Assembly (NCBI GenBank): GCA_963719085.1
Contig: CAVRAL010000005.1
Coordinates: 32,001-96,000 of the forward strand
Length of the DNA: 64,000 nucleotides
Reading direction: 5' to 3'
Origin: a candidate division FCPU426 bacterium
GTDB taxonomy: Bacteria; Oederibacteriota; Muellerivitia; Muellerivitales; Muellerivitaceae
This document shows positions 1 through 58,981 of this stretch, piece by piece. A program made the position numbers and the translations under genes. Positions within the stretch are counted from its first letter, which is position 1. Each line of letters begins with the position of its first letter. The notes under the pieces are model-generated. The model had not been told where the DNA came from. It ran no database searches and worked only from the letters and a program-made list of their open reading frames with translations.

Positions 1-293
1 CCATCAAGAGAAGTTTGGAAAATACGACCGGTTGATCCTACAACACCAATATATACCATGTTTAACATAGAAACATTATTAATAAGTGCGCTTGGATTTG
101 GCAAACCTTATAGCCCAGCAGTTATAACAGTTATTGGTTTTTTCGTAAATTTTTGGATATCATTAATTTTTCCAGGTGTTATGGATTGGAATGAAAAGAC
201 ATTATCGGTGCTTGTTGTTCTCGCATTATCCTGTCAATTTTTTTGGTCACGTGTTTGTCAAATTTATCGGAGATATTTTAATTAGATTGTGTT
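1..293. repeat. Direct repeat copy 1 (partner 2889-3253), probable degenerate gene fragment on the minus strand
   Basis: Near-identical to 2889-3253; copy 2 has ~70 extra bases at ~3113-3185. Confidence 0.85.
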
Positions 294-651
294 ATGTATG
301 CCATACTTTTATTGTTAAAAATTATGCTATATATGTTCTTATGTAGTGTTATGTGGTAGTTCATATATTTTTATTCGCTTTCTGATACATATGTTCTTGT
401 TATTTTCCTTCTTGTTCAGTTGGTATTTTCCTTTCGTTTTTCTTTTGTCTCTTCTTCGTATACATGTCACAGCTTGGACTTCTCCCTTTCTCTATATCAC
501 ATATGTTAGAACTTTTCCTTTCTTTCTCTATATGTCATCTTTTGAAATCTTCTTATTCCATTTTATTCTTCATCTCCTCATTCTTCTAACACAAATGATG
601 CTGAACTTATTCTTGAACTTCGTCGTGAAATCACTTGATGTCGTTCCTTAT

Positions 652-2061
652 TAAGGTAGAAAAACTGCAAAATTACAGTGGATTTTTCTTTTCGTTTATT
701 TATATATGGTTTGATAGAGCGTGAAAAGCTGATCACGAATATATATATTTTATTTCGATTTGATCGCTATTTGGCTGAAAAACGTTAAACAAGTTGAACG
801 ACTACAAATGTCGTATATGCAGCTAAAACTCGTTTCTTTTACAGAAATTGTTAAATTTCAGGGTCATTTATTTTGTTAAACTTTTTTTAAATATTATATT
901 CTGAATCAGCATGAAAAACTGAATTAGAAAATGCTATTTGATTAGACTCAAAGCTAAAAAAAGTTTAAAAAATTCGGTCCAGTATAAATACCTCGACATG
1001 CTCAAAAGTGACTAACCGTGTAAACCTATCTAGTTTTTTGTAATAAGAGATAAAAACAACTATCATATCTCGTTAGAATCGTCAGATCGTGGGCTACAAA
1101 AGTACCTATTTAGTTTTCTTAAATTTTTTTTAATGTTGAGAAAATTAAAGTTTTTTCATATTTGGTGGCAAAATCAAGTGAAAAGACGAAAAATGCGTTA
1201 GTTTTTGGGAAAATCCAATACCATAGCTCAGTAGAAATGAAAAATAAATAAGATATTCAGAATCAGCGTAAAAAACTACGTCGAATCACATATGTTTCAA
1301 AAAAAAAGAAATTTTATGAAATTTCAGCCTGTGGGGGACCCCAGGCAAAATCTTTACGAAATTCTGCTGAGGGGGAGTACAGGTCATTTTTGCGATGGAA
1401 ATATTTTTGCCTAAAGAATATGTGATTCGACGTAGTTTTTTACGCTGATTCTGAATATCTTATTTATTTTTCATTTCTACTGAGCTATGGTATTGGATTT
1501 TCCCAAAAACTAACGCATTTTTCGTCTTTTCACTTGATTTTGCCACCAAATATGAAAAAACTTTAATTTTCTCAACATTAAAAAAAATTTAAGAAAACTA
1601 AATAGGTACTTTTGTAGCCCACGATCTGACGATTCTAACGAGATATGATAGTTGTTTCTATCTCTTATTACAAAAAACTAGATAGGTTTACACGGTTAGT
1701 CACTTTTGAGCATGTCGAGGTATTTATACTGGACCGAATTTTTTAAACTTTTTTTAGCTTTGAGTCTAATCAAATAGCATTTTCTAATTCAGTTTTTCAT
1801 GCTGATTCAGAATATAATATTTAAAAAAAGTTTAACAAAATAAATGACCCTGAAATTTAACAATTTCTGTAAAAGAAACGAGTTTTAGCTGCATATACGA
1901 CATTTGTAGTCGTTCAACTTGTTTAACATTTTTCTCAGCCAAATAGCGATCAAATCGAAATAAAATATATATATTCGTGATCAGCTTTTCACGCTCTATC
2001 AAACCATATATAAATAAACGAAAAGAAAAATCCACTGTAATTTTGCAGTTTTTCTACCTTA
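652..2061. mobile_element. Foldback / long-TIR non-autonomous DNA transposon (arms ~652-1293 and ~1418-2061, spacer ~124 bp)
   Basis: taaggtagaaaaactgcaaaattacagtgga... is the reverse complement of ...tccactgtaattttgcagtttttctacctta over ~640 bp with a few differences; no transposase ORF. Confidence 0.85.
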
Positions 2062-2198
2062 TTTATGCTGTAGATTTGTTTTTGGAGTTGAAAAAAACAA
2101 CAGTCACTCACTTTGTGAATCAATTTGGTCTTTCTATTGTTACAGAATGCTATCTATGTAAGAAGAAATAAGTACATCTATTTGTTTTATCAAATAAA

Positions 2199-2860
2199 CC
2201 AAATACGGATTCCGGTTCTCATAGTATAGCTCCGTATACGCGAGATTGTATACGGAACGTGTGTATGACCTCCGTATATCTCCGTTTCTCTCGGTAAACG
2301 GTCGTTTACGAGCCTGCCTGTTCGACCTGGGTATACATATATAGATATATAATTGTTTATTTCTCACGGTCAATGCCACTTATAACTAATTCGTCCCCAA
2401 CCAGTTAAAAAAACGATTAAAAAAAAATTTGTCCATTCTGCCGCGGACGAAAGTCGTCAGCGGGTATGAAAATTTTTTATGACTTCAGGAAAAATAATTT
2501 ATTCTTCGGCAATAGACAAAGAGAATAGAACAGTAAGTATTTTAATCTATTTTTTATTTATTTTAGGTCATTTCCAGTCAACAGTTTAACGAATAGTGAG
2601 TATTTTTTTTAAATTTATTTAATTTATTTTTTCTTTTAGATTGTTTTTTTTATGGATGAATTCGATCGTATGGAAAGGGTAGGGAGAGAGGCAGAGTCAG
2701 ATATAGAACCGGTCTCGTGCCCGGTCTGATAAAATGGCTTGTGGTTCCAGTACGGTAAAAGTCACGATCTGTGTACCGTGGTTTACCTGCATACGCTCGT
2801 TTACGACCGTATACAGGACAAATACGGTCGTATACGGAGTCCGTAACAGGCGATCTGGGT
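2199..2860. repeat. Two degenerate TACGG/CCGTA-rich repeat ends (~2199-2332 and ~2745-2860), both ending cga(c/t)ctgggt; probable MITE fragments
   Basis: Local clusters of tacgg/ccgta motifs in an AT-rich background and a shared terminus. Confidence 0.45.
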
Positions 2861-2888
2861 TGCACTTATTATCACATCAACTCTTTTT

Positions 2889-3253
2889 CCACCAAGAGAA
2901 GTTTGGAAAATACGACCGGTTGATCCTACAACACCAATATATACCATGCTTAATATAGAAGCATCATTAATAAGTGCGCTTGGGTTTGGCAAACCTTATA
3001 GCTCAGCAGTTATAACAGTTATTGGTTTTTTCGTAAATTTTTGGATATCATTAGTTTTTCCAGGTGTTATGGATTGGAATGAAAAGACATTATCGGTGCT
3101 TGTTGTTCTTGCATTTCATTTAAAAAATTTTTTGAATTCTCTTCTTTGTTAATATTTCATTCTTTATTGCACTTACTGTATGAATTATCCTGTCAATTTT
3201 TTTGGCCACGTGTTTGTCAAATTTATCGGAGATATTTTAATTAGATTGTGTTA
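2889..3253. repeat. Direct repeat copy 2 (partner 1-293)
   Basis: Aligns by eye to 1-293; ORF-track peptides 58..285 and 2946..3152 are nearly identical. Confidence 0.85.
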
Positions 3254-3644
3254 ACCAATACGATATGTTAGAATAACACATGTCACTGTTAATTGTTAAT
3301 AAATATCTTAGAATGTTGGCAACTCACATTCATTTTGTGCATGTCTGCTAGTAAACCAATGATAAAATATTGAACTATTTTTAAAAAGAAGTATCCGCGA
3401 ATTCTCTTCATCAATTATATACAAGAAATTTTCTTAGTTTTTCCCATCGATTTTAGTCTCTTATGTAATAAATTTTATTCGTAACTTCGGTTTCTATGAA
3501 CAAATTTTACGAGCATCGCTTCTGATTACCAATATCATGTTGAGAAAAAATCAATCTTACCTGATTATTAAAATAGTATTTCGTGAAGTTACTTTTTCAA
3601 TTGTTATAATCTTTTTTGACTATTACTAAACTACTGCTTATAAT

Positions 3645-3723
3645 TAGGGATGCAACGGTGACGGTGAGCCACCGGTCTCACCGGTCTATCGGTGGACCGG
3701 TGACCGTCACCGTTGCATGCCTA
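3645..3723. mobile_element. hAT-type MITE, 79 bp
   Basis: TIR tagggatgcaacggtgacggt...accgtcaccgttgcatgccta; perfect 8-bp TSD cttataat at 3637-3644 and 3724-3731. Confidence 0.9.
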
Positions 3724-4214
3724 CTTATAATGGTTACAAAAAAATTAGAAGGGAGCCGTACAAGGTCGGAACTATAGAAAGATAAGATACAGCTGATAGT
3801 TTCAACATTATTGGTAAACTCCATCAGTCTGACTTAGAAATTGCTGATGAAATACGTCATATAACAACAGATGTCTAGATTCAACTACAAATGACATTGG
3901 ATAGAGCTATTATAAGCAAGAATCATAGATCTTGATCAAGAAAAGAGTAGCTCCACCACTTGTAAAGATTATCTGATAAATATCAAGATATTCGAAACTT
4001 TAATTTGTTATTGAATATAATTAGAAGATAAAACACCCAATTCACAGTTAAGAATATATTCATTTAATAATCTTCTTTTTCTACAAGAATAAATTCACAT
4101 ATAACAAAGATACACACAACACACACAATTAACTAGAGAATTAGGAAGACGAAAATACATAGAAATAATAATGTACAGAGACAAAAAAGGGTTAATGTTC
4201 ACTGATCAACAATT

Positions 4215-7200
4215 TTACACGCGAAATCGTCTAAAAACAAAGAAAAATGTAATTATAAAATAAATTAATGAGTGATTAATTTACTTAGGTGCAACAGCCG
4301 GACCCTGGCGGGACGAAGGTGATTGTGTATTTGTCTAAAAAATAAAAAATTAATTTAATTTTAAAATAAATATAATTTACTTCTTGAAGAATTCGTTCTT
4401 CACTTTGACATCGTTTATGTAATATTAATGGATCTGGTGGTGATGTACATGTTAATCGTTCAACATCATTAAAAATGACATTAACACCTCCAGTACTTGA
4501 TTGAAGAACATCACCCTAATAAATCAAAAAAATAAATTTATATTTAAAGTAAAAGAATAATTTACTTTAACAAAATCAGTAACAATTTCGCCTTGTGCAT
4601 CAAGATTTTGATGTGTTAAAACATATTTTGTTGTTCGCACTATTTCATTTTTAGCTGGTGCTTGTTGAGTAGACACTTTTTTATGAAATTTTGGTTGAAG
4701 AAGAGTCTCTAGATTAAACCAAAACATTTATTTTACAAGAATAACTATCTCTTTACCTGTTTGAATTGTTCCTTGTGGTCTATGTTCAAGCCACACTTCA
4801 CGTTAATGAACGTGATCTTCGATGTTGTTGTCTTGGATGACCAACAAGAACATGTCCATTAGTATTTTCAATATTCATTGGTTCAGTATTTGGAATATTC
4901 GGACGACGATGAGGACTTGTATTTTTTGATGTTGGTGTTTTACAATTTTGAGATATAATCATTTCAACACGATGATATTGTTGTTGTTGATTTTGATAAA
5001 CATGATCCATTGGACTTCTAGAAAAAATAATCTCATCATAAAATGTTTTTGTTTTTAAAAATATTCTTTACTCGATATTAACATGTGATGATGGTGATTT
5101 AATTGGAATTAAAAATTGTTCATTTGTAATGTTATTATTTGCAGCCATTGATCGAATAATATTTAATTTATCATCATGTTGTCGTTCAAGTTCACGCATT
5201 TGAATTTCTTTATTTTTTATTTCATTAATCTTAAGAAAAAAAAGTTGAAATAAGATTTTTAAATAAATAAATGATTTACATATTGTTGTTCAATTTCATT
5301 TAATTTTAATTTTTAATTTATTTTCAAAATCAATTTTATCTTTTCGTCGTTCAGATTTTAAAGATTTTATTTCATTATTTCGTTCTTCAATTTGAGATTT
5401 TAATGTTTTATTTTCACGTTCAATTTGATTTGTTGTTTTATATAAATCATTTTGAGATTTTTCTAATAATTTAATACGTGTTTGTAAATGACGAATTGTT
5501 TTTGTTTGTTGATCATTTTCTTTTGATAAATCATCATGATCAGATATTGTTGAATCATAATCAGATGCTAATTCAAGTGTAAATTTACGTAAATAATTCT
5601 TGTTGTTCTTGAATAAGCTATTAATGAACAAAGAAAATAAATTAGATTATAAGAAAAATAAAGATTTTTACCATATTAAATCGTTGTCGTTCATCCATAC
5701 GTCGTCGTAAATGTTCTTGAAGAATTAAAATAGCTTCATCATCACCAGCTCCATCCAATAGAGAATATTCAAGTGATGGAAATGGAGCAATTAATGCTTG
5801 AGCACTAGAATGAGAAATAAAAAGTTTTTTCAATAAAATATTCTCTTATTTACTTGAATTCAGTAAAAAGAATTGGTTGTGCATTTTGTTGTTGTTGATT
5901 ATCAATTTCACGTAAAGCCCCAACACGAGTGAATTTTGGTGGAACTGGTGGAGGTGGAGGTGGTAAAGCACGTGGTACCATAACATCTTTAGTTAATTCA
6001 CCAAATTTAAGTGCATGCTAAAAGTACAATTATTCAAATAAATAAAAATAATAAAATAAATATTTACTTGAATTTCTTCATAACCATCCACAGTTGGATT
6101 AACACAAAGAATCATTCGTATTCGACCTTCACCATCAAAATAACTTTTAAAAAATGATGTTAATTTTGATTCACGATATGGTACCATCTATATAATAAAA
6201 TCTTGTATTTTTTTCAATTAGAAAAAAGAAATAAAGTTTACCTTGCTTGTACCTTGTGCTTGATTTTCTCGTAAAGTTTCAAAACATTGTCGAAGAACCA
6301 TTAATGATGAATTAATATTACCTAAATCAAAATTTGAATCAATCACGAAATTTCAAATAATTCACTTACTTGCTTCTTTAACTCGTTCACCAACAGTTTT
6401 AGCTCGATTAACACGTTCACTTCCAGCTAAATCAACTAAATGAATTGTACTAATTGTTAAATCATCTTTTGTCTATTATAAAAAAAAAACAATATTTTAT
6501 AAAAATATAAAAAATAAAACATACAAGTGATGTTGGTGGAATATCATTATGAAATTGAACAAGACGCATTGATAGAACACTATGTGATCGACTTGATTCA
6601 GTATTAATTGTGTATGAGCAATACGACGTCGTTTTAAACCCATATTAAGTAATTCAATTGCTTCTTCACTTGATACGTACTTCAATTTCTTTAACATCTT
6701 TTATATATGGTCGACCACGATTATCTTCACGTAATTGTTTCGATTGTGGTGCTCTAAAAAACAAAAAGATTTATTTCCTTGTTTAAAATATATCTAATCT
6801 TACTTATTAAGAATATCATCATCGAATAAATCATAAATATAATTATTATAAATTTCAACAAATGTAACAAAGACAAAATATGAACAATTTTCATTTAATT
6901 GTGGATTCCATAATGATGTCGTATCTAATGTACGACCATTTGATGAATCAGGAATTCTATATAATGATATTATTTGAATTATAAAAATGATGAAAGAGTT
7001 TATCTTACTTTCCACGTTGATTATTACCATTTCTAGCCATTTGAATTTCTTTTCGTTGTCGTTCAAGTAAAATATCAGCTTCACTTTGAATTTCATAACC
7101 ATTTTGACGATCAGAACGAAGAAGCTAAAACAAATCAATATAAAGAAAACATCAAAAATTCGAATCAAACTCACATATTTCTTTCCAAGATGTGATCCAA

Positions 7201-7841
7201 TTGAATTAAAAATAACATCAAATGAACGTGGAATTAAACCAGGATTATTCAATGGTCCCATCATTGTATAAGTTTTTCCTGAACCTGTAATTCCATATGT
7301 AAATAATACACCTAAATTTTTTCATAAATAGAATTAAATGTTTACTTTAAGAAATAAAAACAACATACTGTTTTTTCCTTGAATAAGATCATCAAGGAGA
7401 GGTATAGCTAATTCTTTAAAAGCAGCTGATTGTGAAACATCATCAGTAAGAATATGAGTAAATTCATAACGAGACTAAACAAAAAAAATTTTAATAGGAT
7501 AAAAGTATCAAAGACGAAATGACTTACTTCTCTAATTTGTCCATTTTTAGCATTCTAGAAAAAATATAATCAAGTATTCGAATAATGAACTATTAAAATA
7601 AATCCTGACCTCAGATGAGAAGAGAGTGAGTTCTGTTGAACTTGAAACTTTGAACATGATGATGAATTATCTGTTTCTTGATCATTATTATTATCTTTTG
7701 GTGGTCGTAAACGACAGAAGACCTTTGTTAAAATAAATAAAAATAATTAATTATCAAAATTCGATAGAAATTATTCACTTCAACAGGACAACCACCACCA
7801 TTGGCAAGTAAATCTCGCGAGCCAAGATGTGTTTTCTTCAT
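4215..7841 (-). pseudogene. KIF23: Kinesin-6 KIF23/MKLP1-like multi-exon gene with at least 5 frameshifts as assembled (pseudogene or consensus errors)
   Basis: Exons give VFCRLRP, GITGSGKTYT, the kinesin-6 insert [43 protein letters not shown], a coiled coil, RRSRS, and the MKLP1 tail KYVLTHQNLDAQGEIVTDFVK|GDV; short GT-AG introns; start codon uncertain. Confidence 0.88.
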
Positions 7842-9059
7842 TGGAGTGCGTGATATTATTAAAATCAAAACAATTTATATAGACGAAAAGAAACAAAAGG
7901 AAAATAAAAGTTCGAATAAAGAATGGAGAAAATTGGTCGAGGTACTATATCTATATTGATCGTGATCGTCAGTCATAAGTGATCGAAGAACGTATCTATT
8001 GGTTAATTCATACAAAAGACAAAACGTCATTACTATATATCAATTATGCTCTGTTTCAGAGAATATAATGAAGAAAACTATATTCAAACTTAAAATATAT
8101 AACATGCGACTGTCGTAAAACCCAATCTGGAATAATTACTTAATAGATGTCGTCGCTAATAACAACTTTTTTTTTAACCATCTTTCTCATAAAGTACTTA
8201 ACCAGGGTCACAACATCTCCTGATTTTTTAGACTTTTCTTCTGATAAAAAATCTTCTGGATCTAAAACTGCTTTTTAATGTTTTCTCCTAATTTTTATTC
8301 TTTTCATTCTCGATTTTGAAAATTGAAATCGAGTTTCACTTGTTAAATTTGTCACAGTCATTCATTGGACATTGTGCAGAACAAAGCGTTGATGGACAGA
8401 AAACACCAGGCTCAAACCCTTTGAACAGGAGTATCGCTCTAAAATTTTTATAGTGCCTGGAACATTTGCGTACATAATCTACCGATCAGATTTTTTAGTT
8501 GTTTTCGAGCTTCGTTATCAATTTGACAAATTGTATCAATTGAAGTTACCGTAACGGATATAGCTCAACAAACTCCAGGAATCGAATAACGATAAAAACG
8601 CTGTGTAATCTCTCTGACTTAAATACTTACTGTAGCATGCACAGCCTACATCAAAACTAAGCAGTGTCAATAAAGAAGCACTGGCTCCTAATGTCACGGA
8701 TTTTTCCTCACCAGTTCTTACTTGAAAATGGATTATCATGAGCAAACTAGTTATCGGTCTGAAATTCGTGATAGGCTGGTTCAAAATCAACTCCAGCTAA
8801 CCTAGCCGAGGTTAACAGAGCCCGACTTATGAGTCAACTCATCAAAATAGAGAAACCATGGGATGATATTGGCCGAGCATCTTATGTGATATGCACTCAT
8901 CATTCGAGTAGGTAGTCGAAAAAAATGTCTGCACGCAACTTTTGTGATCAGTTGACCATTTTAAAAAATGTCTTTCAATGTGTTTTGTTCCAGGGGCACT
9001 TTTCAGAAAGAAAGTTTTAAAGAAATACGAAAAGAAAACGCAATTATATATTTGTTGAC

Positions 9060-9169
9060 TAGGGATGCAACGGTGACGGTGAGCCACCGGTCACCGGTTC
9101 ACCGATCCACCGGTCTCACCGGTCTATCGGTGGACCGGTGGACCGGTGACCGTCACCGTTGCATGCCTA
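9060..9169. mobile_element. hAT-type MITE, 110 bp, same family as 3645-3723
   Basis: Same TIRs; perfect 8-bp TSD ttgttgac at 9052-9059 and 9170-9177. Confidence 0.9.
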
Positions 9170-9769
9170 TTGTTGACCTTTTCCTATTCGAGTTTGACCA
9201 ATTTAACTCCACGCACGTTATCTTTCTTTTTTTTCTATAGCTATTGCTATTGTCTGCTCTTCAATATATATCTTCCGACAATCAGAATTTTCTCGTTTTT
9301 CTTTTAGATTTTATAGAACAACCCAATTCTTCATTGGTGATCAAAATCATTTCTCAAACAGAACACAGACAAGAAGTTCTTCTCTTTATTCAAAGAATTT
9401 TCTCTTCAAATTCAGTCTAAGATCAAATGCATGCCGATAAAAGACAACAATCCTAGCGGACACTGTGAATTCTAGCCGCGTTTATATTTTGTTACTTTCT
9501 TACAAGGCGTCGTCGAAACATGAAGAACAATAACCGTCTCACTTGTCTTTAGTGCGCTTCCTATCTTGATGGAGGGTTCACTCGAGTGAAACGGTCAACT
9601 AAGGAAAGATATATATATATATATATGTATATTTGTCGTTCGTCCATTTATCTTCAGACTAATAAAACAAGCACGACGTTCATTGTTGTTGTTATTCAGC
9701 TCGATATAAGAGGAAGAAGGAAGGCGTTCAACTGTGTACATCTAATTTTCGTTCATGAGAGAAAGAACA

Positions 9770-10997
9770 ATGTCGACCACCTTCGAATCACTCTGCAACG
9801 ACGTTCTCATGATCATCTTCGAGTATATCGGCGAAGTGAATCTCCTCCTCGACGGTTTTCTCAACCTGAACCAACGGCTGAACTCTGTTCTTTTCGACCA
9901 CCGCCTTCGCACATTCTGGCTGATCATTGCCAGTGACAGTGGTGCTGAGAAGCGAGATATACACTGTCTGAAACAACATCTCCGCTCACTCTGGCTAATT
10001 CAGAAGAACTGGTCACCTTCGTTATTTATTACGACGGTGCGTCTGCCCTCTCTTTGCCACCTGGTCATCTATGGACTCAACTTCGATAGTGTCAAGCTAT
10101 TATTTGCCAAAGCTGAGGATCACTACCCGAATCTAAAGTATTTAGTTGTGAACAACGCAGGTGAGTAGCCGAGACTCTCTCCCATTTTTAACTTAGTTCG
10201 AACCCAGCTCTTTCTCCATAGGTTACACGACAGAATACAAAGATTACTCCGAAACCGGCGCCGCCCTCTCAACTATCGTGTCCAATGCTCTTCAGCTAAA
10301 ATCACTGGCGTCACTTGAACTCACAGTTTACCGCAATCCATGCATTCTGAATATACCTGTCTTGGAACAACAGCAACAGCAATTCACTCTCCAGTACTTG
10401 ACTCTGACGGACCGATTCAAGATCGATAATCTCTTTCTCCTCTGCCAACAGCTACCTTTTCTCAAGCGACTCCAGCTGCGAGCTCAGCTGGGAGACGATG
10501 TATCTAATAATTTTACTCATATTCGTTCCGTGTTTTCGCTGAAGTGCAAGGTAAAACTGAACCTTGAACTAGTCTGGTTGAAGGCGCAGTTCAATCTACT
10601 CACACTGCTCCTTACGAACATGCCGAATCTCTACGACCTATACATTTTTGGCACTACTGCTCTTGACACTGTTCTTCTGATGAAGAAGTACCTTAGTGCA
10701 TACTACTGGAATGACACGCTGCTGGCACAGTTACCACGACTGAGAAAGCTAAAAGTGGATCTGAAGGCATATGGTATGTTGCTGCCTGCTGATGAAGAAA
10801 TGCTCGAACGGGAAATCATCGCTCCGTTTCGAAACGAACAGGAAAAATACCAGAAATTTCTTCTACGATTGTACCCTCGTTGTCTGGGAGAAGGTTATTT
10901 AAGCTACCTTCATTTACAATCTCAACAGAAGACTACTACAACTGGAAGAGACAGCTGGGTTGACGGCGACTACGTGCCAGATATATATATCGGATAA
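9770..10997 (+). CDS. F-box-like / LRR-like protein, two exons (intron 10161-10221)
   Basis: N-terminus FESLCNDVLMIIFEYI..GFLNLNQRLN resembles the F-box-like family expanded in bdelloids; removing the gtgag...atag intron joins ORFs 9755..10168 and 10278..10997 in frame. Confidence 0.75.
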
Positions 10998-12138
10998 ATG
11001 TAGTAGCTTTGTAGTGGTATAATTTCTAATAAAAATCAGCAAGAAAACTGTAGTAGTCTGAACTAGTAAAACAGAGAAAATGGTCTAGAGCTCAAGAAGA
11101 CCGCCACAGAAATATTTTTCTCCTTTTACTCTCTGCAAAATAAGTAGTACTGCTTGACATTCAACCTTTCTGATCTGAGAACCAAACTCACTTGATCAGC
11201 GACATAGATTTTAAACGAATGTACTGTTCTCTGGATCTTTATTTCATGATTAACATAAGTGGTTTCAAAAAACACATGGTTTGCAACCATGGCGAATAGG
11301 AACTAAAGCAAACGCTTGTGCTGTGTGGCTATTATTCGGGTGTGAAAAATAAGAATGTGTCGTACAATCGATGCCCACATGAGCAAGACAATGATTGTCT
11401 GCGCTCGACATTAAAGAAAACGAAATGTGAGGTGAGAACCCATGAGTTCGGAGGACGACTGAAAATTAGACAACAACTGCCACTGCTCAAATTTTTCGAA
11501 GCTAAACCAGGAACTTGCTTTCTAATCAACATTTTCTCACTCGATGGACGTATATGGGCCAATGAAGCGAATTCATGCCACAACAGAGACCGTCAGGACG
11601 ACGTTTTTTCTGTCCCGTCCCGTCCCATTTCTCGCAGGAAATTTTCTTGTCACATCGAGATCAATCATCACTTTTTGCTAACACATTGCCTCTCTACTTG
11701 GTTATTGTTTCCTCATTGAAGTCAAATCTTATCATTCATTTTCACACACAACCTGCACAAAAAAAAACTTGTCAATCATTGCAGGAGAAAAGACCATGAC
11801 TTTATATTCCGGGCACATCGAAGAAGATCATTTTCGAGTGAAGCTAATCGAAGGAGCACGGCGCTGTCCACTTCAGATAATGAAGAATCTATCTAGAAAT
11901 AAAATATAAGAAGAATTTTTACTAGCATTATTTAAGTGGATGGACAAAGCTAAATATCACAGATGTTTAACAGCAATAATATCAGTATTCTATTCCTCCT
12001 CCTGTATTAATAGTCATAAGACGTATTTATACATTTCTTTTCTTTCTATAATAAAAGAGCACGTGCACATACACGTGACTTTTTTCTCAATAAATAGTTG
12101 ATAAATAATAATCGATTATTTATTTTCCTCAACGAAAA

Positions 12139-13890
12139 ATGAAAAAGAGCTCAAAATGTTTTATGGATCCAAAGGAAAAATTGGTTAGTCATGAAGCACT
12201 TGAAGAATACAATAAGCAAATACGAAAAAAAAATAATTCTGGTGAAAAACGTTCACCACCACCTGATGATGATGGCATTAACGTGATTAGCATGGATAGT
12301 AATAGTTACCAACTGTCAACACCACAAGAAAAGAAGAAACCAAAGATAAATAGAGATTTATTATTAGTGAATAATTCTCGAAGTGGTAATCAAGGATTGG
12401 TACAACATCAGGCATCAAATGGATATAATAGCAGTAATGTGCAACAAGATGTAATTAATATATCGAACCAAGCACTATCATTTACAATTGAAAATAATTT
12501 CGCACCAGTGAAAATTGAATGCTCACCCCCTTTCCAACATCGTGAAGAAGCAAAAAGATTTATTGTGAATTTTTTCAAGGTTATAAACAATGAATTTCGC
12601 AAAGAATATCCAAAGAATCAATAACCGTTAGGTTTCCATCATTGGTGGATAGATACAGGTGGTAAAACATTATATGGTGTCACGAATGATGTCGATCTTT
12701 ATATCTATTTATGTGAAATCAAAAATTATCGGAACGAATCGACAATATCAAAATCGAACCAAATCCACCGAATCGACTTCCACCCCAAAACACAGTCATT
12801 ATTAAATTTGTATCAAATGAGATATGTAAAGAAGATATATCAAATGAGATCAAAAATTAAATATCATCAAGATTTGTAGTCGACGATATGATGGAAAAAA
12901 TGAGATCAAATAGTCGACATATCAGACTAGCATTGTATCAAAAGGATGACTATATTAAAATTATAAATGATGGTAAAATTGCATTACAAGGACAAATATT
13001 CGAAGTAGAAGAATATCTTCCGCCTCCAAAAATACTCATATGTTTTAAATACAATAAACCTGGTCATGTGAAGAAAACATGTGAATCACCTGTTGAATTA
13101 TGTCGAAGATGTGGCGAAAACAGAAATGATGGTAATAAACATAGTGAATGTAGTATCAAGTGTCGCCATTGTGACGGTGATCATATAGCGACAGACTGTA
13201 AATGTCCCTTGATATTAAAATTTCGGCAAGAACTACTTAATCGATTAAAACTGATCGAAATAAATTACCACCAAATATTAAACTTTTTATTCCGGTCGAC
13301 TGCAGAACGACGGGTGATCGAAATAGATACTTAACTCCTGTGAACAACAACGAAATTCAAAATCTTGTTCCATCTCAGCCTCCAATTATGAATCCATGGT
13401 TTGACAAACAATGCACAAACAATGAAACATCGTCTACAACTGACGCTGGTCAAATAGTGAAGGTCTTGCAAATGAGTTGCAGGAATGTAAAAAGAAGTTT
13501 GAGATTGAATATGTGAAAATCAAAAGTTCCTACGATACGCTAATGAAATCAATTCAGCAAGCATGGCTCATGTTGCAATAACAGGTTCAAGCACAAAACC
13601 AATATTTGTCACTCATGTCAACGATGATCAAGGACAATGTAGTAGCAATGAACCAACTATATAACACCGATAATAACGACATTCAATGAAATTATCAAAA
13701 TAAAGCTTGATGGAATAGACAGAAATAAAATAGAAATGTCTCAAACACTTATCAATTCGACATTAAACCATATGAAGAATTTAAATGATTCATATATTAA
13801 ACATGAGCAAAATCTAACAATGATCATGAATAAACAGGTGACAGTGTTTGAAACGGCAATGGACTCCTTCTTTCCGCCGATTAATGTGAA
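12139..13890 (+). pseudogene. Degenerate gag-like ORF1 of a non-LTR retrotransposon
   Basis: Three zinc-knuckle-like motifs (CFKYNKPGHVKKTC, CRRCG..H..C, CRHCDGDH....C); stops and frameshifts; no ORF2 follows. Confidence 0.7.
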
Positions 13891-14242
13891 GTTGGTACAT
13901 GCGCGGCTTTGTTAAGTTTTTCTGGAGATTGTTATTCAAGCGTAGTTAATTTAACCAATACAGAATATGTAAAAAAATGTACTTCGAATTGGTTCTTTTG
14001 GTCTTATTCACTTAATAATATTATATTAATTATTGAAACAGAACTTACTCAACAACGTCATGATTATACAATTTCTCTTGATAATGAATGTATAGTGGGT
14101 GCTATTTTACATGTTTATCGAATCTTTAATAATCAAGGAACTGATGTAACAACGCGAGATAAAACACTTATAGAATATTCCGATTCAAATTATCAAATTA
14201 TCCGGTTGGTACATAAGTTCTGCACGTTTTTTTGTTCACCAA

Positions 14243-15101
14243 CAAAGGACGGGGGTGCATAAGGTCGAGCTGTTAGTTCATAGTGGAGTCGACGCAGAAT
14301 TTTACGGCGAATCTTTTGGTAATAAAATATAGCCTTTCTGAACGATTCTGGGTCACTTATACTCGAAATACTGAAGATGGGTCATGGCATGCCTCTACGA
14401 GAGCGGTACGAAGGGGCGAATTTTTCGGCGAAAAAAAGTTCAAGAAAACGTTTGAAACATACATTAGTCGACTCAGTTTTTGATGCTGATTCCAAATATG
14501 ATGTTTATTTGAGATCAACTGAGGGTTCTTCTGACCGAAAACCATGGAATATCAGTCAAAAATGTCAAAAATCAGGTCTCAAAAATAGTATGATTAGGAT
14601 TTGGTCAAGTGGCCCACTTTTTTAGATCCTAAAAAGTAGCTAGTTTTGTAGCCCTTCAAAAGCTCTATCGAATGGCATACAAAAGAATTGGGGTGGAAAT
14701 ACAGTTGTAATTCATATATGATAACAAAATGATAAAAATCTTGTTTTTTATACATACTGAACCTATTGTTTGATGTTTTTGACCTATTGGTCAACTTTTT
14801 TGGATTCTTAAAAATAGTCAGTTTTGTAGAGCTTAAAAAGCTCTATCGAATGGTATATAAAAGAAATGGGAAGAAAATATAATTGTAATTCATATATGAT
14901 GAAAAAATGAGAAGAATCTTTGAGAGTGTTATTGACTAATTAATGGGCCCTGATGGCACCTAAAATCTTATAGGAATACATTGTATTTAGCATCAAAATG
15001 ATCAGAAAGTCATAATCTATCAATTTATGTATGAATCAATTAGTTTTAATAGTGAAAATCAAAAGGGGCCAAAATACGTCCTTATGCGCCCCCGCCCTTT
15101 G
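14243..15101. mobile_element. Non-autonomous TIR element, ~860 bp, CAAAG termini
   Basis: caaaggacgggggtgcataagg vs ccttatgcgcccccgccctttg (20/22 inverted match); internal ~100-bp duplication; no TSD seen. Confidence 0.6.
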
Positions 15102-15253
15102 AGAGCATACATGCCACACAGCTGAGAACAGGAAGAAAAAAAATGAACAGTTAATGAGAAAATAAACAAGAAGAATTTCAGCTTTTGTCGAATCAGAGTA
15201 AGTTTCGCCAAACTATAGGATCATGATCAATTTCTACTTCTGAAGAATCATCA

Positions 15254-15898
15254 TCAGTTTCTACTTCGGTAAGACCATGATCGATTTCTACCTCTATAGG
15301 ATCGTCCATAAATTTCTACTTCTATAGAATCATTTAGAGTATTATGATTGTTATGTGAAAAACGACGACCGCCTCCGAGAAAGAATATATCAAAGGCCAC
15401 GCCCAAAAACAGAAGTATCCCAGTACCATGAAGAAATGTATTTACATTATAATAAAAACAATTATCACGATAAATACCATTTGTAATAAAGACGAAGATA
15501 AATACGGAAATGATCCATAAAACCCAGACAAGAATACGACTGTACTTTCCATTCACCGAGAAAAGTTCTCGAATAGTATAGATCTGTAGTATGAATAGGG
15601 CTTATTTCAGATAAATAGGGCTACCCAGAAGATAATAATGAGTGAGACAGTTTTTCAGTTGTTCATGTTTCGTTGATTGTATAGAGCAAAGACAATCTTC
15701 ATAAGGAATACCACAAAGTAAGTCAACTGTAATTAACTTCAAATTTGGCGTCCGCGAACGAAGAACCGATTCATAAGCGTCGTCTATAGTCTTTTGAAAT
15801 GAAGCGTACAAAAAAATGGTGCTGTTAAAAATGATGGAAACAAAAATTTGAGCGCGAAATGATTCTATGGCGAGCGGAATGCCAAATTTGATTTCCAT
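15254..15898 (-). pseudogene. Hypothetical membrane protein interrupted by one in-frame stop
   Basis: ORFs 15602..15898 and 15254..15556 share a frame; hydrophobic segments. Confidence 0.35.
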
Positions 15899-16840
15899 AT
15901 TGATATTTGTTCGATTTCAATAATAATCCAATTGAAAGAGTATTCAACTAATCTAATGAATATATATCTGAAATAAAACATGAAAAATATTTAGAGACGA
16001 TTGATAAAACAAAAGATGCTTTAATGCATCAATCAGAATCAATATTAAACCTAATTCTCATTTATCTTTAGCCTTTTTTCTTGTTTAACGTTCAAATATA
16101 AATCGCATAATGAAAAATAGATAATACGAAAACCAAAATGACAAGAAAAGAATGTTGTTCGCGATCGAATATCGATATTAGCAGAATAATTTGATGTAAA
16201 TATTAAAGGTAATAGCAAAAAAATCTATGAAATTAGTTGAAAAAACTAATTTCGTTTAGAAAATTTCCATCGAAAGAGTAATACATACACACTGATTTTA
16301 TCCAACTCTAGGTGAAAAGACATGCCGTAATTATTCGATTGGAATATATTGTCATCGAACACATTATAAACATAATTCTTATACATTGTAGGAAAAATAA
16401 TAAGAATAAACTATGAGATTTTTATCGAAACTTACTTTTATAGATCCAGATTTATGTAATACTCAAACAACTAATGCACATCTATATTTTATGTTCATTT
16501 CATTTAGATAAAAAATAAGAAGGTTTAACTTGATATATTGACCATCAGTTAACATCTGCTTATTTAAACCGCTTTAGATTGCCTTTAGAATAGAGTTATT
16601 CATCATTTTAAAGATGATAAAACATTAAATGATCGATATCATTGAAAGATATGGTAAAAAACAACGTCAAGAAAAAGAAAAATGGAGCACAATAAATACA
16701 TATTTCGTTTTGAAATATTAACAGATTCTCATCACATTAAAGTGAAGCAGTGTGTATATGTTTCATCATGACAAATATATTTTCATAAGAAAAAGAATGA
16801 AAATGCTTTAAAATTGTTAACGAAGAAATATTATGTAAAA

Positions 16841-17882
16841 CCACCACCAAAATGCCTTCTTCCAATAATTTGGCGGACATGGCGACCGCCTTTTCGTTGT
16901 CGCCCACCATCACGGGAATAATCGGGCTCTCGCCCGCCGGAACCTCAAAACCCAAACCCTTTAACCCATTGCGGATTTTGTCCGCGTTCTTCTTTAGCTT
17001 TTCCACCCGGTCCGGTTCCTCTTCCAAAACTTCCAGGGCGCCTAAAGAGGCCCCGCAAACCGAGGGCGGCAAACCCGTGGTATAGATAAAAGTCCTGGCC
17101 TTATTTAAAAGGATGTCGGTCAGCAATTTAGAAGCGCAGACAAATCCGCCGATGCTTCCCAAGGCCTTGCTATAGGTTCCCATGACCACGGTTGGAAGCG
17201 TCCTCAAGGGAAAATGATGGGCCGCGCCGCGCCCGCCCACCCCTAAAACCCCCGTTCCATGGGCGTCGTCGATTAAAACCATGGCGTCAAACTCAGCGGC
17301 CAAATCCATGATGCCTCCCAAAGGAGCCAAATCCCCGTCCATGCTGAATAAAGAATCGGTCACAATCAAGCGCCTGCGGTAATTGCGGGCGCGTTCCAAA
17401 CAGCTTTTTAAATCATCCAGGTTTAAATGCTCATAGACCAGCAGTTTGGCTTTCGACATCCGGCAAGCGTCGACCAAGCTGGCGTGGTTGAGCCGGTCGC
17501 AAAGCACCGCGTCCTCATCCCCCACCAGCGCCGAAACAGCGGCTAAATTGGCCATATAACCCGTGGGAAAAGCCAGGCAGGATTCGGTCCCTTTAAAGAG
17601 GGCGGTTTTTTCCTCAAGCAAATCATGGATGGGAAAGTTGCCCGACACCAGCCGGGAAGCCTGCGCCCCGGCGCCATAGCGGTCCAAAGCCTGGTGGGAC
17701 ATTTTGAGCACGCGGGGATGGTCGGATAAACCCAGATAATTATTGGCGCAAAAAAGGGTGCAGTCTTGCCCGTTGACGCGGGCTTTCGCGCCGCCCAAAA
17801 GATCGACGGTGCGCAATTGACGCTTCAGGCCTTGGGCTTCCCAGTCCTTCAACTCTTGTTCAAGTTCCGCCATCCAATCCAA
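16841..17882 (-). pseudogene. bioF: 8-amino-7-oxononanoate synthase, 3'-truncated at the bacterial/eukaryotic junction
   Basis: NNYLGL, DRLNHAS, FSMDGD, DDAHG, GTYSKA motifs; family similarity stops after GILVV where IRPPTV is expected, and the ORF reads into AT-rich DNA to 16737. Confidence 0.9.
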
Positions 17883-17892
17883 GCGGTTCCCC

Positions 17893-18357
17893 TTAAACGA
17901 AAGTGAGTTCGAAAAAGTACTCGGCGTCCGGTTCGTCGTTGTAACGGGGAATCAATCGGAACCCGTATTTTTTGAAAAGGTGGATGGCCGCGGGGGACTT
18001 GGAGTTGGTGTCCAACCGAAGTTTTCTAAACCCGAAAGTAGGGGCGCTTTGGATGACTTTTTCCAAAAGCATCTTGCCTTGGCCCTTGCCGCGTTTGTTC
18101 GAGTCGACGAAGAAGCGCTTAATCTCGCCCGTGCGGTCCTCAATCCAGCGAAGCGCGATGGTGCCGACGATTTTACCGTGATCCCGCAAGACCCAAAAAT
18201 CCCCGGTTTTCTGGTAGAACTCCGGGATGCGCCGCAGGTCCGATTGGCCGCCCTCGAGGTCGAGCTCAATCCCGATTTCCCGGAAAGGGCCCTCCAGAAA
18301 GGTTTCCAGTTCTTTTTGAAATTCCACGCGATAGGGTAAGCATTCCATAGGTTTCAA
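17893..18357 (-). CDS. GNAT family N-acetyltransferase
   Basis: EIKRFFV..RGKGQGK and A..LFKKYGF motifs. Confidence 0.88.
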   Translation of the reverse strand: MKPMECLPYRVEFQKELETFLEGPFREIGIELDLEGGQSDLRRIPEFYQKTGDFWVLRDHGKIVGTIALRWIEDRTGEIKRFFVDSNKRGKGQGKMLLEKVIQSAPTFGFRKLRLDTNSKSPAAIHLFKKYGFRLIPRYNDEPDAEYFFELTFV

Positions 18358-19553
18358 CCTTTAGAAAAAATAACCGCGCCCAACTGTCCCCCGATGCCGT
18401 ACGACAGGGACATCACATGTTCCCAATTTCCCGTCACGCCGCCCGGCGGCACATGCCGCACCCGGCATTCCGGATCAGGGTCTTTCAGGTTCCGGGTCAC
18501 CGGAGCCCGCCCGCGACTGACAGCCATCGCCGTGAAAACCGCTTCCACGCTGCCGGCCGCCCCGAGCAAATGGCCCGTGGCGCCTTTGGTGGAACTCACC
18601 CAAACCGAACGCGCGCCAAAAACCTCAGCGAGCGCTTCGGACTCTACTTTATCATTGGCCCGGGTCCCAGTTCCATGGGCGTTAATATAACCGATATTTT
18701 CCGGTTTAAGTCCGGCCCGGCTTAAGGCCCGCTGAATGACCCCTATGATAGAACGACCCCGGGGTTCCAGTTCCAAAATTCCATCCCCGTCGGCGCCCAA
18801 GGCCCAGCCCGTCATCCGGACTAAAGGAGTCGCTCCCCTCCCCAAAGCCGAACTTTCCGACTCTAAAACCATCGCGCCGCACCCTTCCCCCAATAAAAAA
18901 CCATCTCGGCAAAGATCAAAAGGCCGTCCACCCTGGGGATTTGAGGTCAAAAGCCCCATTTGGGCGAAACCAGCCAGAACCAGGGGATGGATGGAAGATT
19001 CGGTGCTGCCGGCTAAAACCGCCCCGCAGGATCCCCGCTCAATCCAATCGGCGGCCTGGATCAAGCTGGCCAGCCCGGTGGCGCAAGCGGCCGAGAAAGA
19101 CAAGGCGGGACCTTTAAATCCAAGCTGTTCCCGCAGGAAAATTCCGGGCGTGGAGGGAAAAAAATCTTGAAGAAAATTGAGCGGGGGCGCCTGCCCCCGC
19201 TCCAAATCTTCCCGGGCCCGAAGCAGGCTTAAGAGCCCGCCTTTGCTGGAAGAAAAAGTCGTCCCGACCGCCGCGGGGGAAACTTGGCCCAGCGCGGCTT
19301 GGTCCCAAGCCTCCTGGGCCGCCAACGCCGCCAATTGAAGGGAGCGGTCCCGCGGCGAGGTCCCCCCAGGCGGCGTGAAGGACGGCACCCGGGCCGCTCT
19401 TGGCGATTTAAATTTCAGCCACTCGGGGCCGGATAAACGCTCACCTTCCGCGCCCATCCCCTCCATTAGCGCATCCCAGCTTTGGGCCGCGTTCAACCCC
19501 ACGGGGCAAACCACTCCCCAACCCGTCACCACCAAGGCCGCGTTTACAGCCAT
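18354..19553 (-). CDS. Beta-ketoacyl-ACP synthase, FabF-like and divergent
   Basis: SAACATG, HGTGT, KGATGHLLGAAG catalytic motifs. Confidence 0.88.
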   Translation of the reverse strand: MAVNAALVVTGWGVVCPVGLNAAQSWDALMEGMGAEGERLSGPEWLKFKSPRAARVPSFTPPGGTSPRDRSLQLAALAAQEAWDQAALGQVSPAAVGTTFSSSKGGLLSLLRAREDLERGQAPPLNFLQDFFPSTPGIFLREQLGFKGPALSFSAACATGLASLIQAADWIERGSCGAVLAGSTESSIHPLVLAGFAQMGLLTSNPQGGRPFDLCRDGFLLGEGCGAMVLESESSALGRGATPLVRMTGWALGADGDGILELEPRGRSIIGVIQRALSRAGLKPENIGYINAHGTGTRANDKVESEALAEVFGARSVWVSSTKGATGHLLGAAGSVEAVFTAMAVSRGRAPVTRNLKDPDPECRVRHVPPGGVTGNWEHVMSLSYGIGGQLGAVIFSKG

Positions 19554-20272
19554 CCCGGAATCCGGGAATCCAAATTAAAAACCTGGCCCGAAATGGACCG
19601 GCTTTGGGCCAGCCAAAGCATAAACTGCTCCACTTCGCGCAAATCAGTCGTCGCGGGCAGAAGATGCCGGGAGCGGATCGCCTCTTCCGCTTCCGGCGTC
19701 AACCCGTCCGATAACCGGGTTTTATGAAAACCGGGGCAAACCACGTTGACCCGGATATTTTTAGATCCATATTCCCGGGCCAGGCTTCGGGCCAAACCAA
19801 TCAAACCGGCCTTGGCGGAAGCGTAGGAAACTTGCCCCGGATTACCCGTGGTGGCCACCACCGAGGAAATAAAAATAAGGTGGCCTCCCTGGCGCAGCAT
19901 GGGCTTTAGGCAGGCTTTGGAAATCAGGAAGGAAGCCTTCAGGTGGACGCCTAAGGTGGCGTCCCAATCCGCCTCGTCCACATTCATCACCCGGGCGTTG
20001 CGGGTGAAACCCGCGTTATGAATCACGCAATCGATGGTGGAAAAGCGATCCCGGGTGGCCGTCACCCAAGCGTTCACCTCACCGCTTTGGGTGACATCGG
20101 CTTTGAGGACCAAAAAATGGGGAGTAAGTTTCGCCAGCTGGGTTTTGGCTTCGGCGGCCGAAGCCTCATCCTCATGATAACAGGTGGAGACGGCCCATCC
20201 CGCGGCGGCGAAAGCCCGGATCAATGCCCATCCAATTCCCCGGGTGCCCCCTGAAATTAATAGAACCGGCAT
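19544..20272 (-). CDS. SDR family 3-oxoacyl-ACP reductase-like
   Basis: SGGTRGIG, HNAG, YASAK. Confidence 0.88.
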   Translation of the reverse strand: MPVLLISGGTRGIGWALIRAFAAAGWAVSTCYHEDEASAAEAKTQLAKLTPHFLVLKADVTQSGEVNAWVTATRDRFSTIDCVIHNAGFTRNARVMNVDEADWDATLGVHLKASFLISKACLKPMLRQGGHLIFISSVVATTGNPGQVSYASAKAGLIGLARSLAREYGSKNIRVNVVCPGFHKTRLSDGLTPEAEEAIRSRHLLPATTDLREVEQFMLWLAQSRSISGQVFNLDSRIPGWL

Positions 20273-20319
20273 CGCCCACTCCAAAAATTAAAATTCACAA
20301 GCTCAATCTTATACGCGTT

Positions 20320-20483
20320 CATGCCCCGGGATTCCATGTTGAATTCATAGATACCCGGAACAATGCCGCTTTTCCCCTAACTACGATATGGAGAAGCGAC
20401 GCGAACGCGGATGAACGCGGATTAGAATAAACATTTGTTTAAGTCGTTTCACATCGGCGTTCATCTGCGTCCATCATTGTAAA
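20320..20483 (-). repeat. GAT-decamer REP-like palindrome carrying the 80-bp double-hairpin insert (20324-20403)
   Basis: Reverse-orientation homolog of the copies at 24540, 53445, 54497 and 59012. Confidence 0.85.
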
Positions 20484-20540
20484 ATTGATTTTGGGCCTTT
20501 TAGGTTTTCGGATGAAAAATGTAGACGTCGGGAAAAGACT

Positions 20541-21356: not shown

Positions 21357-21423
21357 GGCTTAGAGTTTAACATAAACCCACGCGGGTGAAATGACTTTCC
21401 CGGACGGCGACCGCCTTAAAATA

Positions 21424-21454: not shown

Positions 21455-21483
21455 TAAGGCGTTAGGCGGAAGGCGAAGTTGGC

Positions 21484-28772: not shown

Positions 28773-29993
28773 TTATTTTTTCAAAGCCAACTTGGCCTTT
28801 TCAGTGGGAACAAAGGCGGCTTCTTTTTTGACTTCCAACTTCGCTTCCATCTTTTCCTTAGCGCCCACGGCCGCCAGCGGGGCAGCCGATGATGCCGGCG
28901 CCGCCTTCGGCGCAGACGAAGCCCCCGAAGGCGCAGTCCCCGCGGGGGAGGACAAAGCCCCCGAAGGGGACAAAGTCTCCGAGGTGGAAGACGCCGCCGT
29001 GGGGATCAACCCGGATTTTTCCTTCACTTTTTTCTCAATCTGGGCGTAGACGTCGGCGTTTTCCTTCAGGAAGGTCTTAGCCGCCTCGCGGCCTTGCCCC
29101 AATTTCACCTCCCCGTAGCTTAGCCAAGTACCGCTCTTGTCGATGACTTCCATCGTAACCGCCGTATCGATCAAGCTGCCTTCTTTTGAGACTCCCAAAC
29201 CAAAGATGATGTCGAAAAAAGCCTCCCGGAAAGGCTGGGCGGTCTTATTTTTCACGACCTTGACCTTGACCTTATTGCCGATATTTACATCACCGTTTTT
29301 GATCGCTTCCACCCGGCGGATGTCCAAGCGCATGGAAGAATAAAATTTGAGGGCCCGGCCGCCGGGAGTGGTTTCGGGGCTTCCAAACATGACGCCGATC
29401 TTTTCCCGGATTTGGTTGATGAAGATGGCTGAGGTGTGGGATTTGGCCAGTAAGGCGGTGAGTTTTCGCAAGGCCTGGCTCATCAAGCGGGCCTGCAAGC
29501 CCACATGGGCGTCGCCCATTTCCCCTTCGAGTTCGGCCCGGGGCGCCAAGGCGGCCACAGAGTCGATCACCAGCACGTCGATCGCGCCGGAACGGATCAG
29601 CGTATCGGCGATTTGGAGCGCTTCTTCCGCCGAATCCGGCTGGGAAATAAGCAGTTCGTTCACATTCACGCCAAGCTTGGCCGCGTAAACCGGATCCATG
29701 GCGTGTTCGGCGTCGATAAAGACCGCGGTTCCGCCGGCCTTTTGGGCCTCGGCCACGATATGAAGCGTCAAGGTCGTCTTACCGGAGGATTCCGGTCCGT
29801 AAATCTCAATGATGCGGCCCCGGGGAACGCCGCCGATGCCGGTAGCGATATCCAATGAAATAGCGCCGGTCGAAATGGCCTTCACATCCTGTACCTTGGC
29901 TTCACCCAAGCGCATGATCGCGCCTTTGCCGTGGTCTTTTTCGATCTGTAAGATCGCCATATCCAACGCTTTTTGCTTTTCGGTTGCGGCCAT
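28773..29993 (-). CDS. recA: Recombinase RecA with a long C-terminal extension
   Basis: [33 protein letters not shown]; aaggag RBS. Confidence 0.98.
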
Positions 29994-58684: not shown

Positions 58685-58789
58685 GGCCCACTCCCCGAGG
58701 CAGAATTGGCTTAAACGGGAGCTCGAACGGAGGGACCTTCGAAAGAAGGCATTACTCCGCTTCTTACACCCGAAGAAGCATCAACAACG

Positions 58790-58943
58790 CTCAAGGCCGG
58801 TCTCCTGACTTGGGAATCTGACGTTCGCCTTCCCGGGCTTTCACCCAGTGGCCGCCTCATTGAAGAGGCCTGAACGGTAGAATTGCTTCCCTTACAGTGG
58901 CGGGTCCGCGCCGGATTCTCACCGGCTTCCCGATCACCTTGAG
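58790..58943 (-). ncRNA. Cobalamin riboswitch
   Basis: gggaagccggtgagaatccggcgcggacccgccactgt, gccactg..gggaagg, and B12 box aagtcaggagaccggcc on the minus strand. Confidence 0.95.
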
Positions 58944-58981
58944 TTGTGCGTACTTAATACCTGCCTTTTCAAAAACTGTCA

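Follow-up and report, generated by a model that had tools for sequence, protein, structure and literature searches.

A gapless junction of bdelloid-rotifer-like and bacterial DNA inside bioF, very probably an artefact of sequencing or assembly

The junction between bdelloid-rotifer-like and bacterial DNA at 16840/16841 of the window (the whole stretch of 64,000 nt that was analysed) is very probably an artefact of sequencing or assembly rather than the outcome of gene transfer, and most likely represents no real biological feature. A nuclear DNA fragment of a bdelloid and a chromosome fragment of a free-living bacterium from the same sample would have been joined end to end; an origin of this join in vitro or in silico is inferred, as is the route by which it arose. 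This judgement rests on sequence, the window being the visible part of a 226,441-bp contig of which the other 162 kb lie outside it. The preliminary description had likewise considered a misjoin with an associated bacterium most likely and a recent insertion possible, an interpretation that the evidence given below supports.

A break inside codon 348 of bioF

The window is divided by a real step in base composition, with a GC content of 0.325 to the left of 16840/16841 and 0.525 to the right; in 1-kb windows, the values range from 0.25 to 0.45 over 1–17000 and from 0.44 to 0.61 over 17001–64000. A two-segment likelihood analysis run on 12000–22000 placed the changepoint at 16871, with a 2-log-unit interval of 16839–16874 and a gain of 286 log units. 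Homology locates the break more exactly than composition does, between 16840, the final rotifer base, and 16841, the first bacterial base. Codon 348 of bioF reads GTT (16841–16839), whereas the relatives encode Ala (GCN) at this position, so that bacterial sequence reaches 16841 and the sequence is foreign from 16840 onward. The gapless switch within a bioF codon that the preliminary description had placed at about this point is thus corroborated by alignment, sequence, translation and the changepoint interval.

The two DNAs abut without gap, N or linker at 16840/16841, and no N bases occur anywhere in the window. A repeat search of the window found no repeat family or inverted repeat touching the junction and no link between the junction and other places, in agreement with the earlier statement that neither Ns nor a mobile-element end are present there. 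Apart from a short CCACCACC/AAAA run, the two sides have no visible words in common where they meet, and a target-site duplication is something that a single junction cannot show either way. Because no ORF of at least 60 aa lies in the last 900 nt to the left of the junction, the break on the rotifer side is in non-coding DNA. Taxon and composition switch abruptly at one point and without a gradient, from a rotifer kinesin gene on the left to bacterial protein families on the right, as in a chimera.

The interrupted gene encodes 8-amino-7-oxononanoate synthase (BioF; TIGR00858). Codons 1–347 occupy 16842..17882 on the minus strand and the last 37 codons are gone, replaced by a spurious read-through tail (16737..16841, minus strand) of 34 codons of rotifer non-coding DNA (16841–16740) and a stop (16739–16737), which yields a chimeric ORF of 381 aa running from 17882 to 16737 on the minus strand. 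In an alignment of the window ORF with nine relatives of 381–402 aa, agreement extends up to '...EEGILVV' (residue 347, nt 16842), beyond which the window reads VLHNISSL... whereas all nine relatives read AIRPPTVPKGTARL...; the translation of the tail, VLHNISSLTILKHFHSFSYENIFVMMKHIHTASL*, has no counterpart in any of the nine. The earlier claim that BioF loses its C-terminus and gains a spurious tail can accordingly be put in numbers, 37 residues lost (measured against relatives of 384 aa) and 34 nonsense residues gained. The NCBIfam model TIGR00858 matches the window ORF with 403 bits over profile positions 2–330 of 365, below the curated cut-off of 426.45 bits for a full-length BioF, whereas the intact twin P0126 exceeds it (461.9 bits, profile positions 2–364); the window ORF falls under this equivalog cut-off purely because it is truncated. 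The gene is a BioF cut off by the join. Among the residues missing is the C-terminal IRPPTVP segment, which is nearly invariant in the alignment and the arginine of which presumably binds the substrate carboxylate.

Directly upstream of bioF lie genes for a GNAT acetyltransferase, a FabF-like protein and a FabG-like protein (17893..20284, minus strand; NCBIfam and Pfam), which, judging from stops and starts that overlap or abut, apparently form one operon with bioF. The upstream arrangement matches that of a distant relative, locus L004 (44% BioF identity), where the order is fabG-like, fabF-like, bioF, a GGDEF gene, bioA and bioD. By analogy with this locus, further biotin genes probably follow bioF in the bacterium of the window, at the place where rotifer DNA now stands.

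Bacterial and rotifer DNA on the two sides of the junction

The bacterial chromosome segment extends from 16841 to the end of the window at 64000, with 44 ORFs and 89.5% of the sequence coding. Of the ORFs counted, 36/43 are on the minus strand, and a Shine–Dalgarno-like 4-mer precedes 23 of the 43 longest-ORF starts, compared with a background of 17%. The recA gene (28773..29993, minus strand) encodes 406 aa from an ATG that follows AAGGAG and matches TIGR02012 with 540 bits; the exact RecA sequence is protein P0148, encoded on the 226,441-bp contig. Directly before btuB (56687–58684, minus strand; TIGR01779) stands a cobalamin riboswitch (58778..58956, minus strand), the one element found with Rfam, which covers the full model (RF00174, positions 1–189, 96.9 bits); tRNAs were not found on this side. 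Other family matches include mazG, corA, an Mrr-domain protein, an AsmA-like protein and bshB1; pit, phoU-pstBACS, an outer-membrane factor with an RND pump, and a PAP2 phosphatase; ppx, two dTMP kinases (both tmk), phoR/phoB and a polyphosphate glucokinase-like ROK protein; and btuF, cbiB, cobD and cobQ. For the Mrr-domain protein, an ORF of 586 aa, the Mrr_cat domain was confirmed by Pfam, and an Atlas search returned clusters of Mrr-type restriction endonucleases with a best score of 0.87, which serves as a lead only. With a TonB-dependent receptor, Pst/Pho, RND efflux and B12 salvage, the predicted gene set is that of a free-living cell.

No decay, introns, eukaryotic insertions or compositional drift were seen in 16841–64000. 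The GC content of the bacterial side is the same near the junction as far from it, and the proteins are exactly as long as in close relatives (Ppx, 503 aa in both; PstS, 340 aa; PhoB, 227 aa). The earlier account of 47 kb with intact ORFs, ribosome-binding sites and a riboswitch but without introns therefore holds. Marks of residence in a host, be they introns, decay, altered composition or host signals, are absent from this segment, as they would also be after a very recent event.

The left side, 1..16840, is bdelloid-rotifer-like nuclear DNA, AT-rich (GC 0.325) and containing repeats, a kinesin gene and a gag-like ORF. The gene is KIF23-like (kinesin-6) with short introns and occupies 4284..7850 on the minus strand, where tblastn searches with four of the proteins retrieved in the kinesin search described below (P0208, P0209, P0211 and P0217) against 1–17000 of the window gave exon blocks ordered from 7850 to 4284; the pieces of the kinesin motor on this strand match PF00225 in Pfam. 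Two of the introns could be read directly, are bounded by GT and AG, and measure about 47 and 53 nt, within the intron class of 30–100 bp reported for bdelloids in passages of PMC5916493. The preliminary description of AT-rich, intron-bearing animal DNA giving way to GC-rich operonic DNA is borne out by these GT-AG introns, the 44 ORFs opposite and the two GC values.

A protein search with the 173-aa kinesin ORF at 7321–6800 gave 2914 candidates, of which 2608 reached E ≤ 1e-5. The best 19 matches comprise three entries without a name and 16 named ones (E values from 4e-50 to 2.5e-32), every one of which belongs to Rotaria, Adineta or Didymodactylos, genera that a taxonomy look-up places in Bdelloidea without exception; next come one metaclust entry without a name (E 1.3e-20) and then the first named non-rotifer matches, which are KIF23 proteins at E values of about 1.5e-16. 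With its closest genes bdelloid and its introns short, the left side has the properties of bdelloid nuclear DNA, and the earlier attribution of the animal side to this group stands. The best identity in the kinesin search is 61%, for an ORF that includes a variable loop, and from this value the animal is probably not among the species with a deposited proteome. An intron within the 173-aa ORF was considered and rejected, since the rotifer matches span 98–100% of the ORF, which is hence a single exon with a long loop.

Elsewhere on the rotifer side, an ORF of 266 aa has two protein matches, one of them the window's own, and a large inverted repeat (652–2061) is internal, with a 96-nt spacer and with unrelated sequence and direct repeats on its flanks; it is no less likely to be a natural element than a fold-back read artefact. 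For the ORF that runs past the left end of the window (1–285), an exact look-up in the protein collection gave no match. HGT-rich (Gladyshev-type subtelomeric) regions of bdelloid genomes are said to contain repeats and gag-like ORFs, and the presence of both in the rotifer flank of the junction is an observation that speaks against an artefact.

Translations of rotifer ORFs from the window recur as P0195, P0196, P0200, P0202 and P0204, identical over their length except that P0195, P0196 and P0204 differ from the window in the first (start-codon) residue alone. The contigs that carry these translations are short (3,546 and 5,092 bp; JGI/IMG, Logan and NCBI/ENA), which suggests a mixed-community sample holding both organisms. 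Nothing seen supports the amplified single-animal assembly that had been put forward as context, and identical rotifer ORFs on short JGI/IMG and Logan contigs are at odds with a project devoted to one animal.

Other records of the bacterium and the origin of the join

The chimeric ORF has a letter-for-letter equal, nonsense tail included, in P0128 (381 aa; NCBI/ENA), which lies on the 226,441-bp contig and so supplies the length of the contig behind the window; within the BioF cluster at 90% identity, this form was found on that one contig only. The preliminary description had proposed looking for an intact bioF 3' end on another contig, and such an end is present in two records. P0126 (384 aa; Logan, 10,310-bp contig) shares 347/347 residues with the BioF of the window and is whole, continuing with the normal C-terminus of 37 residues, and P0129 (191 aa; NCBI/ENA, 1,441,998-bp contig) is identical at all 153 overlapping residues and has the same C-terminus as P0126. 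The P0129 ORF begins with the TTG at codon 194, two codons past an in-frame ATG, implying that its gene is cut or broken just upstream in the 1,441,998-bp contig. For the bacterial parent, the sequence thus continues normally past the break in other records, and the intact bioF shows the truncated form to be the derived one and the bacterium to have been present as such in sequenced material. The same description had taken an intact bioF elsewhere as a refutation of HGT, which by itself it is not, since the donor in a transfer would carry an intact allele as well.

Of ten further bacterial ORFs looked up by exact sequence, eight were found, each of them on the 226,441-bp contig. Proteins that cluster with them at 90% identity or more come from JGI/IMG, Logan, ENA and NCBI contigs; in particular, BioF, RecA, PhoB, PstS and Ppx have relatives at this level among the contigs of JGI/IMG, which also contains the exact PhoU sequence. 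The closest BioF relatives are 90%, 85% and 85% identical, with many at about 70%, all from metagenome-type sources. A scan of genome contigs with the BioF alignment yielded 597 stretches and 587 relatives; among the best 80 of these 587, the more distant loci, at 50% identity or less, belong to Omnitrophota, Planctomycetota, Nitrospirota and others, and the best locus among those listed is 50% identical. The lineage is common in environmental data.

Several of these results count for an artefact: the sharp single step without gradient, linker, N or repeat; the likeness of the bacterial side to the chromosome of a living bacterium; the identical bacterial proteins with an uninterrupted bioF on two other contigs; the commonness of the lineage in environmental data; and the rotifer translations on short contigs, which fit a mixed sample of both organisms. 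The likeliest route would be a chimeric long read, formed by ligation or template switching during library preparation, from which the assembler extended the contig, and a graph misjoin would be the other. By either route, the break inside codon 348 would be arbitrary and the open frame would simply run into rotifer non-coding DNA until the first stop, with nothing functional at the site, that is, no integration machinery, selection or expression signal. Contigs of 226 kb and 1.44 Mb suggest that long reads were used. For ligation-based long-read libraries, passages of PMC8495745 give measured proportions of chimeric reads of 0.02–3.17%, and the authors warn that such reads can mimic or falsely validate lateral gene transfer; chimeric contigs in metagenome assemblies are described in parts of PMC8862208, together with a case of false HGT in a tardigrade. 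On the other side of the balance, a join normally has to be covered by several reads to enter a consensus contig, and a lone chimeric read should usually not survive assembly.

Within the artefactual reading, a join made by the assembler or in post-processing, through a graph misjoin at a shared word, gap closing or contig merging and with no chimeric molecule involved, is a possible sub-case, although an unlikely one. Contig merging in metagenomic assembly does yield chimeras, according to passages of PMC8862208, and the lack of any N is what gap closing would leave. A graph misjoin is nevertheless made less likely by the lack of a visible shared word at the join: beyond the short run mentioned above, no shared repeat or low-complexity word is apparent, and the repeat search ties the junction to nowhere else. 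A de Bruijn misjoin in particular would depend on a k-mer that both sides have in common at the junction, and no such k-mer is apparent. The abutment of unrelated DNA within a codon is better explained by a ligated or template-switched molecule. Far more improbable, indeed scarcely credible, is an insertion of rotifer DNA into the bacterial chromosome within bioF, that is, a eukaryote-to-bacterium transfer, the sole support for which is the contiguity of the two DNAs together with bioF as the interrupted gene. The 3' part of bioF never resumes in the 16.8 kb to the left, where there is no BioF-like ORF and no window with a GC content above 0.45, and the identical bacterial proteins occur with an uninterrupted bioF. 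We know of no precedent for a bacterium that carries over 16 kb of animal DNA with introns.

The remaining explanation is improbable: 47 kb or more of bacterial chromosome would genuinely have been inserted at a double-strand break in a bdelloid's nuclear genome, so recently that it had not yet mutated, gained introns or shifted in composition. Such an insertion would agree with the contiguous sequence without N or linker, with the bdelloid-like recipient side, and with a junction that lies in non-coding rotifer DNA, close to repeats and a gag-like ORF. Bdelloids do take up foreign DNA, and a fresh insertion by end joining would also be gapless and without a target-site duplication, which speaks against an artefact. 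The inserted DNA, however, would have to show no trace of eukaryotic residence whatever (89.5% coding, intact protein lengths, no introns or eukaryotic elements, unchanged GC), its proteins are identical to those of a bacterium that has an intact bioF on other contigs, and its donor lineage is environmental rather than a germ-line endosymbiont. Moreover, only the left flank is rotifer DNA, with no second rotifer flank within 47 kb and with bacterial DNA continuing to the end of the window at 64000. To our knowledge, no animal has been reported to contain so large a block from a free-living bacterium. Bdelloids are a group in which about a tenth of the genes are reported to be foreign, HGT having been validated by scaffold linkage to metazoan genes (passages of PMC5916493), and large, nearly unaltered Wolbachia inserts are known in animals (PMC4299567), both of which lend the insertion some plausibility, but the foreign genes documented in bdelloids are, in the same passages of PMC5916493, single genes and often contain introns.

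Significance and comparison with known systems

If the join is an artefact, as we consider very probable, it is most likely without importance as biology and informs on library preparation or assembly, not on rotifers. The contig is public, however, and the chimeric 381-aa 'BioF' (P0128) is already in protein collections. Furthermore, 16.8 kb of animal DNA would enter any bacterial genome bin to which the contig were assigned, and the contig would pass the common test of linkage to metazoan genes that was used to validate animal HGT (described in passages of PMC5916493). There is only a slim chance of the opposite, namely, that a bdelloid lineage without a sequenced genome has freshly integrated 47 kb or more (possibly about 200 kb) of chromosome from a free-living environmental bacterium, end-joined inside bioF. 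Were this true, it would be the largest and youngest transfer of DNA from a non-endosymbiont to an animal on record, and a rare direct snapshot of bulk DNA uptake by a bdelloid.

Among known systems, the tardigrade Hypsibius dujardini offers a case that resembles the window in that unaltered bacterial genes appeared beside animal DNA in one assembly; the apparent HGT dissolved under coverage and independent data, and passages of PMC8862208 cite both the claim and its rebuttals. Unlike the tardigrade case, the two DNAs of the window are physically joined without a gap on one contig, and the usual test of being linked to a metazoan gene would therefore be passed by the window. Chimeric long reads, as characterized in passages of PMC8495745, likewise consist of unrelated fragments placed end to end at arbitrary positions without homology or duplication, although for the contig of the window long reads are suggested solely by the sizes of 226 kb and 1.44 Mb. 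With genuine foreign genes of bdelloids, the window shares a bdelloid-like recipient and a junction that adjoins rotifer genes and repeats. It differs from them in being a 47-kb operonic block of 44 intact bacterial ORFs without marks of residence; the bdelloid surveys proceeded gene by gene through introns, linkage and phylogeny, and scaffolds with at least 95% foreign genes were discarded as likely contaminants (passages of PMC5916493). Nuclear inserts of Wolbachia, finally, are alike in consisting of large blocks of nearly unchanged bacterial chromosome in animal chromosomes (PMC4299567). There, however, the donor lives in the germ line as an endosymbiont and independent methods have confirmed the inserts, whereas the donor of the window has the predicted gene set of a free-living cell and its relatives are spread over environmental metagenome contigs.

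Rotifer gene and repeats to the left of the junction

The rotifer DNA carries a KIF23-like kinesin gene (4284-7850, minus strand) whose product reaches no more than 61% identity with named bdelloid proteins (in the motor-loop exon), and identical fragments of the gene are found on short metagenome-type contigs; the source animal may belong to a bdelloid lineage that lacks a reference genome. Near the start of the window lies a near-perfect inverted repeat, with arms at 652-1307 and 1404-2061 that are 98-99% complementary and separated by a 96-nt spacer. It is flanked by direct repeats (1-294 and 2889-3253; 96-99% identical), each of which carries a similar small ORF. This arrangement may reflect a fold-back element lying between duplicated gene copies, a reading that we rank above the less likely alternative of a fold-back read artefact. 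In addition, a palindromic element of about 90 nt, GC-rich against its AT-rich rotifer surroundings, occurs in two copies (3638-3730 and 9060-9169), with pieces 93-100% identical, and resembles a miniature mobile element. Finally, two adjoining ORFs on the plus strand (12139-13334) form a gag-like unit. A Pfam search with this unit yielded no match. The second ORF contains several Cys/His knuckle-like motifs, and exact copies of the unit are present in Logan and NCBI/ENA. The unit is probably a retroelement remnant.

Phosphate genes and an efflux block in the bacterial segment

The bacterial segment includes a dense phosphate-economy neighbourhood (31505-38115 and 47102-56164) that comprises pit with its TIGR00153 partner, phoU-pstBACS, ppx, phoR/phoB, and a gene for a polyphosphate-glucokinase-like ROK protein. 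The neighbourhood is split by an RND efflux cluster, with which a dip in GC content to 0.44-0.46 at 45-47 kb coincides. Judging from accession numbers, PstS and Ppx are separated by only two genes in a related bin, compared with seven in the window, and therefore the efflux block may be an insertion. Within the second of these intervals, two full-length dTMP kinase paralogues are encoded in tandem, with overlapping genes (49056-50557, plus strand); each spans the whole TIGR00041 profile, with scores just below or near the cut-off.

RecA, vitamin B12 salvage, and the bioF string

RecA (406 aa; 28773-29993, minus strand) ends in a low-complexity, Ala/Ser/Pro-rich extension of about 70 residues; the lengths of its cluster mates (at least 90% identity, near full-length) lie between 374 and 422 aa. 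Genes for vitamin B12 salvage occupy 56286-64000 on the minus strand, with a cobalamin riboswitch upstream of btuB and a DUF4430 ORF, followed by a btuF, cbiS-like, cbiB, cobD, and cobQ string that extends past the window end.

The genes at 16842-20284 (minus strand) form a tightly packed fabG-like, fabF-like, GNAT, and bioF string, with bioF last. These fabG- and fabF-like genes may provide a ketosynthase/reductase pathway dedicated to making the pimeloyl precursor for biotin. Of the 80 best loci among at least 587 relatives, 8, some of them from Omnitrophota, have FabF- or FabG-like genes no more than 4 kb away from bioF, and in one distant relative (L004, 7748-14102 in its own coordinates), the gene order is fabG-fabF-bioF-GGDEF-bioA-bioD.
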